Virus genome (UHGV): UHGV-0200643
From: a virus
DNA: 38,172 bases
Strand: one strand, 5' to 3'
Translations under genes and position numbers: made by a program
The notes under the pieces: generated by a model
What the model saw: only the letters and a program-made list of their open reading frames with translations
What the model was told of the DNA's origin: nothing
The model's database searches: none
Part shown: in pieces, positions 4,570 through 28,164 of the stretch
Numbering within the stretch: position 1 is the first letter of the stretch
How the letters are laid out: the number at the start of each line of letters is the position of its first letter

Positions 4570-5706
4570 ATGATTACACCAGAAAAGATGCAAAAGACTG
4601 CGAATTCAATTATTAATATCTATTCAGAACTGGAAGACCGAATCTTTAACATCATAATCAAAGCGTTAAAACAGTCTCGTTTTCAAGATGTTGCAAAAGA
4701 AGACGTGCTTTTGTGGCAAGTAAAACAACTTTCTAAGATGGGTACATTAAACGATAAAGTTATTGATTTGTTAGCACGATATACAGGAGAGACTCAAGAA
4801 GCAATTGAGCAATTGATTAAGGGAAACGGTGTGAAGATCGTTGATGAAGTAGACCGTGAGCTTGAGCGAATGGTTCGTAAAAGCATTCCAGTCTCTGACG
4901 ATGTAGGAAAGATAATTGATTCTTTAATACGTCAAACTTTCCAAGACTTAAACAACAACGTCAATCAAACATTAATCACCACTAATTTCAATGAGAATAC
5001 AGTTATGCGAGCCTATCAAGCAATTCTTAAACAATCTACCCTAGAATCCATGACGGGTCTTAAAACGCATGAGAAGGCTGTAAAAGATAATGTCTATAAA
5101 ATGGTAGACATGGGAATTAAATCAGGTTTTGTCGATAAAGCTGGTCGTGAGTGGTCAATGGAGGCATACTCTCGAACCGTCGTTCAAACTACGTCACACA
5201 GAACATTCAACGATTTACGATTGCAACGAATGGAAGACTTTGACTGTGTGACTGCATTAATGAGTAGTCATCCAACAGCTAGAGAAGCGTGTGCGCCGAT
5301 ACAAGGTGATTGGGTATTAACTGTGCCGAAAAATGAAGCGCCAGACGAGTTCAAACATTTACCATCTATTTATGATCATGGATATGGCGAACCCAGTGGA
5401 ACGCAAGGAATTAATTGCACACACATTCTTTACCCCGGGAGACCTGATGTGAATACAAATAATCAACCGCAATATGACCCAGAAAAAGCACAAGAAAATG
5501 CTGAAATACAACAAAAACAGCGTAAGCTTGAGCGTGATATTCGCTATCAGAAGAAACGTATGAATGCGGCGGTAGAATTGGAGGATCCCGATACTGTACA
5601 AATGTGTAAGCAAGTTATTTCTAACAAGCAGAAACAGTTAAGAGAACTTATTGAAGACAACGAGTTCTTGGTACGTGATTACAGTAGGGAACAAATACAA
5701 AGTTAA
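4570..5706 (+). CDS. Minor capsid / head morphogenesis protein (SPP1 gp7 / Mu F-like)
   Basis: 378 aa following the portal. Position and size fit. The C-terminus is basic and coiled-coil. Confidence 0.65.
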   Translation: MITPEKMQKTANSIINIYSELEDRIFNIIIKALKQSRFQDVAKEDVLLWQVKQLSKMGTLNDKVIDLLARYTGETQEAIEQLIKGNGVKIVDEVDRELERMVRKSIPVSDDVGKIIDSLIRQTFQDLNNNVNQTLITTNFNENTVMRAYQAILKQSTLESMTGLKTHEKAVKDNVYKMVDMGIKSGFVDKAGREWSMEAYSRTVVQTTSHRTFNDLRLQRMEDFDCVTALMSSHPTAREACAPIQGDWVLTVPKNEAPDEFKHLPSIYDHGYGEPSGTQGINCTHILYPGRPDVNTNNQPQYDPEKAQENAEIQQKQRKLERDIRYQKKRMNAAVELEDPDTVQMCKQVISNKQKQLRELIEDNEFLVRDYSREQIQS

Positions 5707-21539: not shown

Positions 21540-22547
21540 ATGAAAAAGAAAATTACGTTACTGAGCCTTTTACTGGCTCTTTTTTTATTGCCTATTAATG
21601 GGTTTGCTTACACGATCAATAACGAGTTCAATTTAGGGGCGAATGAAGGCAGTCCAATTAGAGCGAATCCTAATTACATTATTGCTCACGATACTGCAAA
21701 TCCTAGCGCAACAGGACGTAACGAAGCTACCTTTATGAAGCGCAATTGGATGAATGCCTACACTAGCTATATTGTTGGTGACGGTATTGTCTACCAAGTT
21801 GGTGAACCAGGTTATGTGCAGTACGGAGGTGGTTCGTATGCGAATTCCAATTCTCCAGTACAAATTGAGTTACAAGCCACACCCAACCCAGCGCTCTTTA
21901 AACAGAACTATAAAGTTTACATTGAATTAATCCGTGACAGTGCGAAACGGTTTAATATTCCTCTTACTGTAGACAGTCCAGTAGGCGGCAAAGGGGTCAT
22001 CAGTCACCAATACATTTCTACGAATTGGTGGGGCGATCATACGGACCCGTATGGCTATTTAGCAAGTCAAGGTGTGTCTCAAGCGCAATTTGCGCATGAT
22101 GTGAAGTATGGTTTTGAATCAAATCAAAACAAACCTGCACCGACTCCAAGCAAACCTGTAGATCCAACTACCGCTGGATCAGGATATTCCGTAATGAATG
22201 ATGGCAAAGGCAACCATGCTCATGTTGATCAGTGGGGGAGGATCGGAAACACCTTGAAGGCTCGTGGTTGGCATATCGCTAATTACAAGTATCAATATGT
22301 ATTTATTATTTATCGGACAACTGGGAAAGAACTCGCTCGTCAAAAAGCACCTGGAGTTGCGAGACCAGATGTTAACGCAGCGTATCGTACAACAGGAAGT
22401 GTTGGTTATGATGTGAACTTTAATGCGAAACAATTTAGTGGCAAGTCAATTGTCGTGATGACTCGTGCAACAAATGATGCTACTGGTAATGTCAGTGGTG
22501 GTCATCAAGATTTCTATGAGACACGCTGGTATCACGATATTAAGTAA
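21540..22547 (+). CDS. Endolysin: N-acetylmuramoyl-L-alanine amidase (Amidase_2/PGRP-like) with N-terminal signal peptide and C-terminal wall-binding region
   Basis: ATG 21540 follows RBS AGGAGG. The signal peptide is MKKKITLLSLLLALFLLPINGFA. Amidase_2-like motifs are IIAHDTANP...YIVGDG...NSNSPVQIELQ. Confidence 0.75.
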   Translation: MKKKITLLSLLLALFLLPINGFAYTINNEFNLGANEGSPIRANPNYIIAHDTANPSATGRNEATFMKRNWMNAYTSYIVGDGIVYQVGEPGYVQYGGGSYANSNSPVQIELQATPNPALFKQNYKVYIELIRDSAKRFNIPLTVDSPVGGKGVISHQYISTNWWGDHTDPYGYLASQGVSQAQFAHDVKYGFESNQNKPAPTPSKPVDPTTAGSGYSVMNDGKGNHAHVDQWGRIGNTLKARGWHIANYKYQYVFIIYRTTGKELARQKAPGVARPDVNAAYRTTGSVGYDVNFNAKQFSGKSIVVMTRATNDATGNVSGGHQDFYETRWYHDIK

Positions 22548-22681: not shown

Positions 22682-22870
22682 ATGGGGAAAACTAACGAAA
22701 GGCTATTCCTAAGCGATTCAGAATTATCTGAATTGAAAAATATAATTGCATTTTCTTTGGAAGAAGGATATGGAGTTTATTACTCTGAAATAGAAACTAC
22801 AAAAAAAGTTTTACTCAAAATATTTCCAGAGGAATTTGAAAAGATAGTTCGAAATTCAATAGTGGAATAG
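22682..22870 (+). CDS. Moron gene 1: 62-aa hypothetical protein
   Basis: AT-rich compared with the flanking DNA. Lies between the lysin and attP. RBS GGGGGAA. Confidence 0.4.
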   Translation: MGKTNERLFLSDSELSELKNIIAFSLEEGYGVYYSEIETTKKVLLKIFPEEFEKIVRNSIVE

Positions 22871-22880
22871 AAAATCATCT

Positions 22881-23516
22881 ATGGATAAGAAAGAGCAAGC
22901 ATTGCTAAATGAGCGTCTGAAAAAGTTTTACCTGAGATTATTCGATGAATCGGATGTCTATTTATTACTGATTATGTTACGTCAGCACAGCAAAAAAAAC
23001 AGCATAGTATTTGAACTAGCTAATTTTGTTGCTCATAGGGAGCGTGATCGCGGAATGTTGCATAAGTACATTCTCGAAACGAAACTGAAAGCAGAAAAAA
23101 TAGGTGTAGAATCTACAACAATAGTAATAAAGGAAAGATTTAAAACTGCTGATCTTTTTAAAGATATAAACCAGATACTACTCGAATTAGAATTTTTACC
23201 TCTACCTAATGAAATATCTAATGAAATAATGGTGTGTGTAATATCACTTTTACAGGATGTTAAATTGGTGAATAACAATAAAATAATAGGTCATTTAGTG
23301 TTAGCTATATCTAAGGATGAGATTGAGCTTATGGGGAGCGTCAAACCAAAAGGAAAGATATATAAAACTACGAACATCAAAATTAATTTTCCGGTGTTAA
23401 AGGCAGAGAATATTTTCTATACTCCTATAACAAAAAGAGAAATAGAAAATACAGTCTTAACTGTTCGTGACGCAAGTGGTAAATTAGTATTAACTAACGT
23501 TGCAAAAAACGAATAA
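22881..23516 (+). CDS. Moron gene 2: 211-aa hypothetical protein (no recognisable family)
   Basis: AT-rich with distinct codon usage. Followed by a strong terminator. Confidence 0.5.
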   Translation: MDKKEQALLNERLKKFYLRLFDESDVYLLLIMLRQHSKKNSIVFELANFVAHRERDRGMLHKYILETKLKAEKIGVESTTIVIKERFKTADLFKDINQILLELEFLPLPNEISNEIMVCVISLLQDVKLVNNNKIIGHLVLAISKDEIELMGSVKPKGKIYKTTNIKINFPVLKAENIFYTPITKREIENTVLTVRDASGKLVLTNVAKNE

Positions 23517-23638: not shown

Positions 23639-23668
23639 AAAAGCCCGAATGATCAGGCTTTCATCATT
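23639..23668 (-). terminator. Intrinsic terminator for the minus-strand gene 23653..23907
   Basis: On the minus strand this reads AGCCTGATCATTCGGGCT followed by TTTTTTATTTTTG. Confidence 0.5.
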
Positions 23669-23907
23669 TCAAATTCCATCATAATTTTCGTCTTTCCGAT
23701 TACCGCATATTTCTTCACAATGAACTGTTTCCTACTATTATATAAACCAGCAACAACTACATGCATGCCGTCTTCTACGTCAGCTAAAAAATTCAACGAG
23801 TGACCAGCAATCAAACAGCTAGTATCATCAAGCTTAAAATAGACGAGGGGACGTTCAGAATACTCTAATATTTTAACTTTGCTAACTAAACCTGTCATTG
23901 ACTCCAT
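23653..23907 (-). CDS. Small (84 aa) hypothetical protein under a LexA-box promoter
   Basis: ATG at 23907 has RBS GAGGAG 8 nt upstream. The track ORF starts at the TTG at 23922. A promoter with an embedded Cheo box lies directly upstream. Confidence 0.5.
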   Translation of the reverse strand: MESMTGLVSKVKILEYSERPLVYFKLDDTSCLIAGHSLNFLADVEDGMHVVVAGLYNSRKQFIVKKYAVIGKTKIMMEFEMMKA

Positions 23908-23935
23908 GCGATCACTCCTCAATTTTGTTAATTAT

Positions 23936-23964
23936 ATTATACGAACAAATGTTCGATAAGTAAA
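23936..23964 (-). promoter_or_regulatory. Sigma-A-type promoter (-35 TTTACT, 17-nt spacer, -10 TATAAT) with an embedded LexA/Cheo box CGAACAAATGTTCG (23942-23955)
   Basis: The minus strand reads TTTACT-TATCGAACATTTGTTCG-TATAAT. This is a perfect match to the Firmicutes LexA consensus CGAAC-N4-GTTCG. Confidence 0.55.
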
Positions 23965-23986
23965 GCATGAAAGATAGATATTTGAT

Positions 23987-24006
23987 GGTGATAGCACTGG
24001 TGATAG
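23987..24006 (+). repeat. attP arm-type repeats, left set (2 x GGTGATAG)
   Basis: GGTGATAG at 23987-23994 and 23999-24006. The second copy is ACTGGTGATAGTGAA. Confidence 0.5.
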
Positions 24007-24215
24007 TGAATAGTTTTTTGTGCATTCTATGAAGGTTTAATTTAGGGATAAAACCTTGATATAATGCGATTCTTTCTTCAATAAAATTAATGAATCAAGG
24101 TTTACGAACAAAAAGAATATGTTCGCTTTGCTTGGAAAACCAGGATTTGAAGATTTAGCAAAAGAATTAAACGATCGTTTATAAATCGCTGTTTCTAGCA
24201 GATTTAATAACGACT

Positions 24216-24269
24216 GGTGATAGAAACATGTTTGCTTCATCTGTTTTTTGGTGATAGAAAAGGTGATAG
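24216..24269 (+). repeat. attP arm-type repeats, right set (3 x GGTGATAG)
   Basis: GGTGATAG at 24216-24223, 24250-24257 and 24262-24269, immediately upstream of the integrase 3' end. Confidence 0.5.
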
Positions 24270-24290: not shown

Positions 24291-25508
24291 TTACGAGTGC
24301 TTTTTCTTTTGCTCTTCAAGATAATCTTCGAACTTTTTCATCGATCGTTCTTTCACTTCTGGAGTGACCGAAGCATAAATTTGAGTAGTAGAAATATCCT
24401 TATGACCTAACAAATCTTTTATGTCATCTAAATCCACCCCAGCTTGTCTCATCCGAATAGCATAAGTGTGTCGGCCATCATGTATTTTAATGTGCTTTAG
24501 TTTTGCTCGTTTTGCGATGCGGGCAGAAGCGCCATTTACCGAACGATTACGGACGATTTTTCCTTTTGATTTGCTTGTCGTATAAATAAAGATATAATCA
24601 GAGTTTGTTTTTTGTAATGGTGTGATCCCAATCTGATCATAGAAGTATTTATAAAATTCCAGCAGCGCAAATTTTGTCCGCTGTGTAATCGGCAAATCAC
24701 GTTCACCAGCGGGAGTCTTAGGGTCGTCAATGATGATTGCATCTTTATTTTCGCCAGTTTCTGCTCGATACAAACGTTCACGTTCGATATTGACAAAGTT
24801 AGAAGAGAAATCAAAGTCTGACCAACGTAGTGCCATAACCTCAGCTTTCCTCAATCCACAATCAAATATCAGTAAAAAGAAGGGATACCAAAACGGTTCC
24901 TTTTCGTTCTTTGCTGACTCAAAAAATTGATTAACTTCATCAGAACTGTAGTGTGGTGGAATCTTTGGTCCCTTAGGAGCTAACGGGAATTCAACATATT
25001 GTGCAGGATTATCTTTTACATAGCCTAACTGGATTGCTTTTCTATATGCGCTTGATAGAGTTGCATTAACTGTTTTAACTGTATTAAACGATAACCCTTT
25101 TTTGCTCCGACCTTTTCCATCAAGAGAAAATAGCTTGTTGATAAATTTTTGGTGATCAGCCCTAGAATAGTTAGTTAAGCGATGTTTGCCGATGTAAGGA
25201 TTGATATACATCCTGATATTTTCTCGGTGAACGATACGAGTACCTTCTTTTACTTTCAATTTGTATTCAGTAATCCATACCTTTAAAAATTGTTCAATTG
25301 TCATATATTTAACATCATTTTTTTGATAATCACCTTTTGCAATTTCACCTTCAGTTATTTTTGCATAGTTGTTTGCTTCATCCCAAGATCTAAAACCTTT
25401 TTTGTGGATTTTATTTTGCCGCTTGGTCCCAGGATCGATACCATTCGAGATAAAGACCTCATATCTAAGTTCGCCACTTTTTAAGTTGTATGGTTTTATA
25501 GATGCCAT
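24291..25508 (-). CDS. int: Tyrosine integrase (phage integrase family)
   Basis: 405 aa. N-terminal SAM-like/arm-binding region. C-terminal catalytic motifs: R...HDGRHTYAIRMRQAG...LLGHKDISTTQIYASV (R-H-R-Y). Confidence 0.9.
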   Translation of the reverse strand: MASIKPYNLKSGELRYEVFISNGIDPGTKRQNKIHKKGFRSWDEANNYAKITEGEIAKGDYQKNDVKYMTIEQFLKVWITEYKLKVKEGTRIVHRENIRMYINPYIGKHRLTNYSRADHQKFINKLFSLDGKGRSKKGLSFNTVKTVNATLSSAYRKAIQLGYVKDNPAQYVEFPLAPKGPKIPPHYSSDEVNQFFESAKNEKEPFWYPFFLLIFDCGLRKAEVMALRWSDFDFSSNFVNIERERLYRAETGENKDAIIIDDPKTPAGERDLPITQRTKFALLEFYKYFYDQIGITPLQKTNSDYIFIYTTSKSKGKIVRNRSVNGASARIAKRAKLKHIKIHDGRHTYAIRMRQAGVDLDDIKDLLGHKDISTTQIYASVTPEVKERSMKKFEDYLEEQKKKHS

Positions 25509-25614
25509 AAAATCATTCCTTTCGGATTATTTAGAGAAAAATTCATAAATGTCCGTATTCAATACGCACAATACTTCTAATTAGGACTTTAATCGTATTA
25601 TTGTCACTTTAATT

Positions 25615-25628
25615 CGAACTTATGTTCG
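25615..25628 (+). promoter_or_regulatory. Second LexA/Cheo box CGAACTTATGTTCG upstream of int
   Basis: Perfect CGAAC-N4-GTTCG, about 107 bp upstream of the int start codon on the minus strand and downstream of the terminator at 25631-25660. Confidence 0.45.
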
Positions 25629-25630
25629 TT

Positions 25631-25660
25631 TGAGGGTTAAAAAGAAAAGCCCGAAGGCTA
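25631..25660 (-). terminator. Intrinsic terminator (minus strand) after the small ORF 25668..25820
   Basis: On the minus strand this reads AGCCTTCGGGCT followed by TTTCTTTTTAA. Confidence 0.5.
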
Positions 25661-25667
25661 ATCTTAA

Positions 25668-25820
25668 TCTTTTTCTCGTAAGACTTTTTCAATGTCTTTT
25701 TTCGCTTGCACGTAGTAGTTAGCTACTTGCTTGGCAGATTTGTGATCTAAGTCCACTTTTTCCAAATAAATGATCGCTACATCGTGAGCCGCTTTTCTAA
25801 TTTCTTCATCTGACATTTCG
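25668..25820 (-). CDS. Small 50-aa ORF (MSDEEIRKAAHDVAIIYLEKVDLDHKSAKQVANYYVQAKKDIEKVLREKD)
   Basis: Followed by a terminator. Missing from the ORF track because it is under 60 aa. A credible coding periodicity. Confidence 0.35.
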
Positions 25821-25890: not shown

Positions 25891-26940
25891 TTATTTAAGT
25901 TCTATATAACCGTTATTAGTCCACCAGTCTGAATCATTAGATTTACCAGCATTTCCTATTTTCGTTTTAGTCTTTCCCTTAGATTCATTGAGTAAACTAT
26001 TTTGAATCATGTAGCCGTCCGATGCTGAATATAGAACAGTTCCATCAGAAGAGATTTGGTCGCTCCAATTAGCAAAATTTATCGAGTCGAGCGTCTGTTT
26101 TGTAAAAAATGTACTAATCGCTAAACCTTCTGATTCGTTACCTTTGTCATCAGTAAATGTTGTCGTCAATTGAATGATGATACTTTCGAATGGGGTGCCT
26201 TGTAGATTTTCTAAAATTTTTTCAACATCTTTGGGATAGGTAACTGCAACCAAAGAGTCGGCATTCCAAAAGGACTCGATTGGATAACTAATAATGACAT
26301 TGCTCCCTTCAATTTTAGTTTTATAATCGGAAACATCAGACTCACTCAATGCACTAGCTAAGATGTTTTCAGGCTTGCTTTCTTCAGTCTCATTTATTTT
26401 CTGGCGTTCGTCTGATTGATTATAAACTTCAACATTATAGGTTTCTGATACGTTTTCATTTGTTTCGGCTACAAGATCATAATAAATGAAATCTACTGTA
26501 GAAGGTAAAGTAACATAAAAATGAAATATTCCTTTTGAATCTGCAGTAGTTCGTATTTCTTTCAGAGAAACGTCATTACGTTCATTAGGTTTCAATTCAA
26601 CTTTGGCATTTTTTTTAGTTTTACCAACAATATCAGCTTTTCCATTTTTATCAGAGTCATATCCAAAATGATCAGAATACATAAACTTGTCGCTCACACT
26701 GATTTTTAAGGGTTCGTTTGCTTCGGTAGGATCAGAAGTCTTTTCAGTCGTTCCAGAGTTCGGTGATAACGAGAAAGCAAAAATAGAAACTACTAGAACG
26801 AGTAAGGAAATACCAATAACTATTAGTCCATTTTTTTTACCGTCTTTAGCAGTTAGTTTTTTTAAGCTAGGAAGCATTATAACGCCAGAAATAAAGCCGA
26901 TAATCGACAAACACATTAAAATTACAAAAAAAGATTGCAT
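25891..26940 (-). CDS. Membrane-anchored surface protein (2 N-terminal TM segments plus large extracytoplasmic domain), candidate superinfection exclusion protein
   Basis: TM helices FFVILMCLSIIGFISGVIML and LIVIGISLLVLVVSIFAFSL. AT-rich. Located between int and the repressor. The ATG at 26940 has RBS GGGGGAA; the track ORF starts at 26955. Confidence 0.5.
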   Translation of the reverse strand: MQSFFVILMCLSIIGFISGVIMLPSLKKLTAKDGKKNGLIVIGISLLVLVVSIFAFSLSPNSGTTEKTSDPTEANEPLKISVSDKFMYSDHFGYDSDKNGKADIVGKTKKNAKVELKPNERNDVSLKEIRTTADSKGIFHFYVTLPSTVDFIYYDLVAETNENVSETYNVEVYNQSDERQKINETEESKPENILASALSESDVSDYKTKIEGSNVIISYPIESFWNADSLVAVTYPKDVEKILENLQGTPFESIIIQLTTTFTDDKGNESEGLAISTFFTKQTLDSINFANWSDQISSDGTVLYSASDGYMIQNSLLNESKGKTKTKIGNAGKSNDSDWWTNNGYIELK

Positions 26941-27009
26941 CAACATTTCCCCCACAATAATAATTTTAAACTCCCACTTAATGGCAGGTAGTTTTAGTCG
27001 CCAGTATTT

Positions 27010-27414
27010 TTACCCATACGATTCTTGATACGCATATTCGAAAGCGATTTCTTTTATTAAGTCTTGATAACTCATATCTAAATTATTTTGTTCTATAAAC
27101 TGCATAAAATTGAACTCATGTATATCTATATCAAGAAGTGATATATAAATTCTTACAAGTTCAGTTATCATAAAACAATCAGCTTGATATTCCATTTTTG
27201 AATGAAATCTCCCGATTTTATAAATTTCTTTTAAGTCATCATGTAAAACTCCATGACCAGCTTCGTGTAAAATCACTTTAATCTTTTCGAAATCGTTTAA
27301 TCCCTTGCAGACAAACATTGTTTTTACTTCTGATATATAACAACCAGGTTTATCTAAATCAAATAATTTTAAAGTAATTCCATATTTTTCGAGAAGCGCT
27401 TCAACTTCCTTCAT
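27010..27414 (-). CDS. ImmA/IrrE-family metallopeptidase (anti-repressor protease)
   Basis: HEXXH motif (ILHEAGHGVLHDD). Its stop lies immediately downstream of the XRE repressor, the typical ImmR-ImmA arrangement. Confidence 0.75.
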   Translation of the reverse strand: MKEVEALLEKYGITLKLFDLDKPGCYISEVKTMFVCKGLNDFEKIKVILHEAGHGVLHDDLKEIYKIGRFHSKMEYQADCFMITELVRIYISLLDIDIHEFNFMQFIEQNNLDMSYQDLIKEIAFEYAYQESYG

Positions 27415-27428
27415 GTCAGCACTCCTCT

Positions 27429-27788
27429 TTATTTTCCATACTTTCCCTTTAGGTATGCACGAATAATTTCTCGATCATGATCTGTTATTGGTTCGCCGTC
27501 AAAACTCATAGCGCTGTCTAACATTTTATCAAGATCGGTATCTGTAGGTTTGTCCTTAACCGACGAAGAAGTACCATCAGCAAGATAATCAACACTTACA
27601 TTATAAATAGAAGCTAAGTCTTTTAAAGATTGTAAATCTGGTTCTCTCGTTCCGTACTCCCAATTAGCATAAGTAGCCATATTTTTTAAACCTAACTTGT
27701 TTGCCACTAATGTTTTTGTCCATCCGTTCTGTTCCCTTAACGATTCAAGACGTTTTGCTAGGGATGATCTATCATCAGACAATTTCAT
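27429..27788 (-). CDS. XRE-family HTH repressor (cI/ImmR-like)
   Basis: N-terminal HTH (LREQNGWTKTLVANKLGLKNMATYANWEYG). Transcribed divergently from the cro-like gene. Confidence 0.75.
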   Translation of the reverse strand: MKLSDDRSSLAKRLESLREQNGWTKTLVANKLGLKNMATYANWEYGTREPDLQSLKDLASIYNVSVDYLADGTSSSVKDKPTDTDLDKMLDSAMSFDGEPITDHDREIIRAYLKGKYGK

Positions 27789-27895: not shown

Positions 27896-27942
27896 TAATT
27901 CATAAGTTAAACGTTTAGTTTAATAGGAAGGAGTTGATTTGC

Positions 27943-28164
27943 TTGGAAATCGCAAAAGATGCATATTTAAAAATGCGAAGTATCCGGAAAGATAAAGGCA
28001 TTACTCAAGCGTATATTGCAAAAAAACTAGGTTTTTCTTCATCACAAGCTTACGCAAACATCGAATATGGGAAAACTGAATTAAAATTTAATGTAGCTGT
28101 GAGAGTAGCCGATATCTTGAATGTATCAGTATACGATTTTTTAGGAGAAGAAGTTAAACTTTAA
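27943..28164 (+). CDS. Cro-like XRE HTH regulator
   Basis: HTH (ITQAYIAKKLGFSSSQAYANIEYG). Likely TTG start at 27943, 9 nt after GGAG; ATG 27973 is an alternative. Confidence 0.6.
   Translation: MEIAKDAYLKMRSIRKDKGITQAYIAKKLGFSSSQAYANIEYGKTELKFNVAVRVADILNVSVYDFLGEEVKL

Follow-up and report, generated by a model that had tools for sequence, protein, structure and literature searches.

The question raised by this locus is whether a LexA-type box in the promoter of a small gene beside the attachment site of a phage is a true SOS operator, and what the gene behind it does. The DNA analysed, 38,172 nucleotides (which we refer to as the window), looks like the complete genome of a temperate siphophage, and the phage is a temperate Enterococcus (E. 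avium group) siphophage; enterococci encode LexA. The gene, which we call p84 after its 84-residue product, is on the minus strand (23653–23907). On one side of it the structural and lysis genes run to position 22547, the last encoding an Amidase_2 endolysin, and between endolysin and p84 lies a plus-strand insert of two genes (62 and 211 aa, 22682–23516), neither product having a family match. On the other side, upstream of p84 and some 25 nt from its promoter, are two arm-type integrase sites GGTGATAG (23987–23994 and 23999–24006), repeats also found in the relatives L001 and L040 and in the cultured phage EG-TP1, followed by the attP core (24105–24187, plus strand), three further arm-type sites on its integrase side (24216–24223, 24250–24257 and 24262–24269) and a minus-strand tyrosine integrase gene (24291–25508). 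An earlier note on this DNA had located the gene between the moron and attP, and the arm-type repeats flanking the core beside p84 bear this out. The core carries the last ~24–28 codons of the host glucose-6-phosphate isomerase gene (pgi), its product matching NCBIfam NF010697 at positions 425–448 of 448 (E 2e-5), and is common to the prophage/host junctions of relatives and to EG-TP1. Since the core encodes the last 24 residues of the enzyme, integration takes place in the 3′ end of pgi, for which the phage supplies a substitute; no element turned up when the window was scanned for tRNA genes and Rfam families, so attP is not a tRNA site. The attP region also has weak DNA matches to Listeria phage contigs. 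Beyond the integrase come a 50-aa open-reading frame and an immunity region of the ImmR/ImmA type, with an ImmA/M78-like metalloprotease gene (27010–27414) and a gene for a 119-aa, HTH-only repressor without an S24 self-cleavage domain (27429–27788), both on the minus strand, the latter faced by a plus-strand Cro-like HTH gene (27934–28164).

The box itself, CGAACAAATGTTCG at 23942–23955, shows no mismatch to the Cheo-type LexA consensus CGAAC-N4-GTTCG, agreeing at all 10 specified positions as the earlier note had claimed. That note had also counted two perfect boxes as beyond chance expectation, and this was borne out: two are present (starting at 23942 and 25615), whilst 100 dinucleotide-preserving shuffles of the window gave a mean of 0.01 and none of the 100 contained two. 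Relaxing the search to one mismatch or fewer gave three boxes (0.54 expected), the additional one, at 5173–5186 within a structural gene, being probably a chance occurrence. A wider-spaced pair, CGAAC-N11-GTTCG at 24107–24127, was considered as a third operator and rejected, as it sits in the pgi coding remnant and is missing from relatives; it is probably a coincidence of coding sequence.

Besides a matching operator, membership in a LexA regulon would be marked by overlap of the operator with the core promoter and by its conservation in orthologous promoters. Read on the minus strand, the whole box is contained in the 17-nt spacer between a −35 hexamer TTTACT (23959–23964) and a −10 hexamer TATAAT (23936–23941), lies contiguous with the latter and so overlaps the core promoter, which matches 10 of 12 consensus positions. 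A GAGGAG ribosome-binding site (23915–23920, minus strand) stands 7 nt before an ATG at 23907, the start that homologues share, in place of the TTG at 23922 from which the list of open-reading frames gives 89 residues. The transcript would end at an intrinsic terminator (23639–23662, minus strand) of 10 paired bases and a T run, the stem of which overlaps the stop codon. The promoter anatomy and the gene boundaries proposed in the earlier note, a box in the spacer of TTTACT-17-TATAAT ahead of an 84-aa gene with its own GAGGAG site and terminator, are thus both borne out (23907–23653 for the gene, 23662–23639 for the terminator), and the evidence supports p84 as a separate, monocistronic transcription unit of SOS type that lies beside attP and apart from the immunity switch.

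Conservation of this arrangement was followed through 57 related loci, collected from viral contigs, species-representative genomes, exact-protein look-ups, and phage and plasmid records. Where the sequence extends far enough upstream, almost all loci show a box with at most one mismatch; promoters that drive p84 directly have it at −38 to −50 relative to the p84 start, and operons that end in p84 have it in front, at −316 to −617, −1001, −2301 or −3616. Over 620 kb such boxes occur at a background of 0.08 per kb, most of these being the p84-linked sites themselves. When 23 distinct promoter sequences of p84 or of operons that end in it (from Enterococcus phages, chromosomes and plasmids, from EG-TP1 and from a Latilactobacillus phage) were aligned on the box, the near-invariant columns were CTTTAC(A/T), GAAC, GTTCG and TATAAT, the last kept in 22 of 23, and the flanks were essentially random. 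Relatives in which the promoter drives p84 directly also keep its 5′ UTR, TAACAAA..GAGGAGTGATC. The p84 coding sequences have diverged from the window copy by 0.7–1.6 at synonymous sites, which is near saturation, and shared recent ancestry is therefore rejected as the cause of the operator's conservation; with dN/dS at 0.10–0.19, p84 is itself a real, constrained gene, as judged from these substitution patterns.

Promoter, operator and p84 travel together in very different settings. The unit is found with a perfect box in EG-TP1, an E. gallinarum phage that was induced by antibiotic and cultured, and on an E. raffinosus megaplasmid, and it recurs at chromosomal sites with ordinary metabolic genes around it and no phage genes detected nearby. 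In the virion-forming Latilactobacillus curvatus phage TMW 1.1365 P2 it lies beside the integrase gene, its box having one mismatch, and the p84 homologue there extends the family beyond Enterococcus. This homologue (L056, OQ240256.1, ~2430–2750) is an unannotated 86-aa protein, its promoter reading TTGACT, box, TATAAT. Weaker boxes, with two mismatches, occur in L038 and its relatives and on an E. faecium plasmid. A box of the LexA type also stands in front of Y-family-polymerase operons, both in genomes of the E. avium group and in one Listeria phage contig. Because only CTTTAC, GAAC, GTTCG and TATAAT are fixed across the 23 promoters, whilst their flanks are randomised, the operator at 23942–23955 is very likely to function as a LexA-type site. 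The evidence supports a real, selected operator in a repressible position, as the earlier note had proposed in reading the arrangement as one of SOS repression, and the comparative evidence strongly supports LexA-type control of p84; on sequence grounds we regard SOS control of the gene as highly probable. The locus is a clean natural case of an operator kept whilst the sequence has diverged to saturation, and methods that predict SOS-controlled prophage genes of enterococci could be trained on it.

The protein behind the operator has 84 residues (9.5 kDa, with a near-neutral pI of 7.8) and no hydrophobic segment, its maximum 19-residue Kyte-Doolittle score being 0.93. Homologues numbered 430 at E ≤1e-3 in a collection of 5.8 billion proteins; the 120 of these that were listed are 81–89 aa long, almost all of them 84 aa, and the named ones among the 120 all belong to the E. 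avium group. An exhaustive HMMER search, run on 1.84 billion representatives, gave only 39 clusters, of small proteins of ~85–100 aa, with named members from Enterococcus (E. hirae, E. asini, E. alishanensis and others). One much longer match in that search, a 1487-aa crane repeat protein (P0145), was dismissed as spurious. No family match was found for p84 in Pfam, PHROGs, NCBIfam or PADLOC, neither a LysM domain nor any other Pfam family being present, and no match among PDB sequences even at E ≤10, so that sequence searches detected no relationship to SSB, PriB or another family. Literature searches on the p84 family, DUF5960, EG-TP1, an E. faecium accession and the LexA motifs of Enterococcus turned up no characterisation, and the family is undescribed in the family libraries and literature searched.

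Structure prediction was more informative. An AlphaFold2 model built on a 38-sequence alignment (pLDDT 91.5) is a five-stranded barrel capped by a helix that connects strands 3 and 4, which is how an OB fold is recognised, and a further helix forms the C-terminus. Foldseek comparisons with the PDB and BFVD agreed with an OB fold, with no specific relative and, in BFVD, generic OB folds only. We therefore describe p84 as soluble, with a predicted OB fold of the SSB/PriB kind that ends in a helix. Structure alignment had independently led the EG-TP1 depositors to name their p84 homologue “SsDNA-binding protein”. That homologue (L053, PQ571292.1, 1460–1729, minus strand) is annotated from an internal methionine (gp32, 68 aa), and the neighbouring gp31 has been over-extended into it. 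The most conserved stretch of p84, CLIAxHSLNFLADV, coincides with the helix that links strands 3 and 4; judged from the model, it could be a protein-binding rather than a DNA-binding surface. The acidic C-terminal tip of bacterial SSBs is absent from p84, which ends instead in a helix (...KIMMEFEMMKA). Set beside the small homo-oligomeric OB-fold proteins that bind single-stranded DNA (the bacterial SSB core, B. subtilis SsbB and PriB), p84 has no detectable sequence relationship to any of them, and differs in lacking the acidic tail and in the shorter loops of its predicted fold; its modelled C-terminal helix is unlike these proteins and resembles RPA32/14 and Stn1/Ten1.

What p84 might do is suggested by its neighbours in relatives. 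Prophages of the E. avium group integrated at the same pgi site have one perfect LexA box in a TTTACA-box-TATAAT promoter, followed by a long operon in the order p77, p147, an IMS Y-family polymerase, p134, DUF5960, SRAP, p70 (a 70-aa protein) and p84. This operon spans 3.6 kb, and the junction sequence shows all of it to be prophage DNA, with the arm sites on one side and the lysis genes on the other. Shorter cassettes consist of p134-p70-p84 (as in EG-TP1), of DUF5960-p84, or of p84 alone, as in the window, so that p84 is the only constant member of the cassette and, in the relatives, always its last gene. The Y-family polymerase occurs together with a YolD-like gene in L001–L006, L027, L028, L035 and L048, and a YolD-like gene is found without the polymerase in EG-TP1 and others. 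Behind the window promoter both the IMS polymerase and the YolD-like gene are absent and p84 alone follows; from the comparison, the window unit clearly derives from a modular SOS cassette of mobile elements, of which it is the smallest form. We considered whether the junction of promoter and p84 in the window arose by recent deletion of the long polymerase operon. This reading is rejected, since Latilactobacillus and several diverged lineages share the direct arrangement, which has a conserved 5′ UTR of its own.

The YolD-like assignment within the cassette is the p134 protein, which had no match in Pfam or NCBIfam. Its N-terminal motif matches the annotated YolD-like protein of Streptococcus phage phi1207.3 (a weak BLAST link), and in a Listeria phage contig a LexA-type box is followed by a p134-like protein and then by a Y-family polymerase; judged from these sequences, p134 is probably a diverged YolD-like protein. 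The p134 homologue of EG-TP1 (gp30) is labelled “DNA-directed RNA polymerase subunit beta”. Another variant in the collection is a natural in-frame fusion in a metagenomic protein of 125 aa (P0121), which joins the first ~11 residues of p70 to p84 and fits the 26–29 nt overlap of the p70 and p84 reading frames in operons.

The closest known system is the group of LexA-controlled YolD/UvrX (and YqjX/YqjW) Y-family-polymerase cassettes found on Gram-positive prophages and chromosomes, for example yolD-uvrX of the Bacillus subtilis prophage SPbeta, and YolD with UvrX/YqjW-type polymerases has been proposed as a LexA-controlled Gram-positive counterpart of Pol V (PMC6511836). Like those cassettes, the p84 unit is borne by mobile elements and has a Cheo-type LexA box in its promoter, and in relatives of the locus the operon includes genes for a YolD-like protein and a Y-family polymerase. 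Unlike them, the window has neither of these two genes and keeps only the terminal OB-fold gene, and the relatives add SRAP, DUF5960 and p70 modules. LexA-controlled cargo on Gram-positive prophages is already known and the regulation here is of the textbook kind; the protein is the compact unknown.

From the promoter anatomy and its conservation we infer how the unit would work. In the lysogen, a dimer of the host's LexA, which enterococci encode (PMC6056675), would sit on the operator, fill the spacer and touch the −10 hexamer, so that RNA polymerase is blocked; upon DNA damage, RecA-stimulated self-cleavage of LexA would free the p84 promoter, giving a transcript of ~300 nt from ~23929 to the terminator at 23639. 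The product is predicted to resemble the DNA-binding cores of SSB, SsbB and PriB, and might bind single-stranded DNA at damaged forks or dock on a translesion-synthesis or RecA-filament partner, thereby acting as a damage-tolerance accessory that would benefit the lysogen and possibly phage replication after induction. The guilt by association in this argument comes from the relatives only, since p84 in the window stands alone, and the accessory role as such is put forward with somewhat less than even confidence. Taken as a whole, a LexA-repressed, damage-inducible p84 unit with an accessory role in damage tolerance is the reading that we favour, with slightly better than even confidence. A more specific version, which is possible but doubtful, would make p84 an unrecognised family of SOS-induced mini OB-fold proteins of Lactobacillales mobile elements, serving as a subunit or gatekeeper of a YolD/UvrX-type mutasome or as a modulator of RecA filaments, and forming the constant core of a traded cassette. 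What corresponds in Gram-positive bacteria to the Pol V mutasome, YolD with a UvrX/YqjW-type polymerase, is so far poorly defined; p84 may belong to this complex and is a concrete candidate for its missing accessory factor, being strongly conserved, SOS-boxed, last in the cassettes and retained alone where the other genes are lost. LexA-controlled prophage cargo is one route by which DNA-damaging antibiotics alter the mutation rate and survival of lysogens.

Several other readings of the locus compete with a damage-tolerance accessory. The simplest, that the box is a chance palindrome in front of a gene that is constitutively expressed or silent, finds a precedent in the one-mismatch box at 5173, which is probably fortuitous, and is effectively excluded by the 0.01 perfect boxes expected and by the 23 promoters that retain the operator in different genera although synonymous sites are saturated. 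The strongest rival is an SOS-response regulator, a damage-induced feedback factor comparable to DinI, RecX or the plasmid protein PsiB, which would bind single-stranded DNA or RecA filaments and tune the cleavage of LexA or of a phage repressor, with no part in lesion bypass. Such a factor would explain why p84 persists without a polymerase at many loci, the window included; dinI and recX are under LexA control, as p84 appears to be, and an OB fold, if the model is right, could compete with RecA for single-stranded DNA. Phage proteins that damp RecA activity do exist, for example AriS of Listeria phi10403S (PMC9043618). Yet p84 resembles none of the known RecA modulators, and its relatives co-transcribe it with lesion-processing enzymes, so that we consider a feedback factor acting on RecA filaments unlikely. 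The earlier note had itself offered three roles, none of which is supported. One was an induction helper, which would be a LexA-controlled antirepressor like Tum of coliphage 186 or those of the Gifsy phages, coupling the SOS signal to the ImmR/ImmA-type switch. p84 shares with these antirepressors its small size, its position away from the immunity region and, on sequence evidence, its control by LexA, and the repressor of the window, being HTH-only and accompanied by an ImmA/M78-like metalloprotease, cannot cleave itself. An antirepressor of this kind should occur with one immunity type only, whereas p84 does not co-vary with repressor type: L015, a phage with an autocleavable HTH+S24 repressor, an unrelated integrase and nothing that matches the window repressor or ImmA, has a p84 of 86% identity, and p84 stands behind the same operator on the megaplasmid and at chromosomal sites without nearby phage genes. 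As p84 also ends the polymerase operon in relatives, has no antirepressor match in PHROGs or Pfam, and differs from Tum and the Gifsy proteins in a predicted fold and operon partners that point to DNA transactions, an induction role is quite improbable.

The other two suggestions are less probable still. A cell-division inhibitor like YneA and SosA of Firmicutes or, as a variant added here, a cytoplasmic inhibitor of FtsZ like SulA, would suit a small SOS-controlled prophage gene with a Cheo-box promoter, and known division inhibitors are poorly conserved in sequence. YneA and SosA, however, are membrane-anchored and act outside the cytoplasm, and p84 has neither an N-terminal membrane anchor nor a secretion signal (maximum 19-residue hydropathy 0.93) and no LysM domain, is predicted to be a soluble OB fold, and is accompanied in relatives by DNA-lesion enzymes, not by division genes; we judge this role very improbable. 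An early excision helper, that is, a recombination directionality factor switched on by the SOS response, is suggested by the way p84 directly adjoins the arm-type sites beside attP and by the conserved LexA box upstream of the integrase gene. An excisionase would be expected to have a winged-helix or HTH fold and to co-vary with its integrase, but p84 has a predicted OB fold, is 76–86% identical beside integrases that are only 23–27% identical to that of the window, is separated from attP by the 3.6-kb operon in relatives, and is present at non-phage sites, so that its persistence across unrelated integrases leaves this reading scarcely credible.

The box upstream of the integrase is the second perfect LexA box of the window (25615–25628), which closely follows a terminator and precedes the integrase start by ~105 nt. 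It belongs to a module of terminator, box, ~105 nt and ribosome-binding site that is kept in six distinct sequences (25509–25670 of the window, L007, L009, L005, L027 and L053, i.e. EG-TP1), the intervening DNA having diverged, and that precedes either the integrase gene or, in some relatives, a gene for a 92-aa protein and then the integrase. We found no convincing promoter overlapping the box at 25615–25628. Retention of the module suggests SOS-controlled expression of the integrase and, if the box is functional, both transcription units flanking attP would be under SOS control.

Some smaller features of the region were also recorded. Most of the related p84 promoters have a GTTCGC half-site (..TGTTCGCTTTACA..) directly 5′ of the −35 hexamer, ~10 nt upstream, carried by L042, L043, L052, L051, L015, L041, L053 and others, and its recurrence suggests that it may be an auxiliary LexA half-site or the site of another regulator; the window promoter lacks it at 23965–23975 (TTCATGCTTTACT). 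Between the integrase and the ImmA-like gene, a minus-strand gene (25891–26955) has a product of 354 aa, which carries a membrane segment at its N-terminus and matches no family; it is a candidate superinfection-exclusion or lysogenic-conversion gene. The 62-aa and 211-aa pair of the insert likewise adjoins p84 in E. hermanniensis (L041), where it is 97–100% identical, and diverged copies are present in L040.
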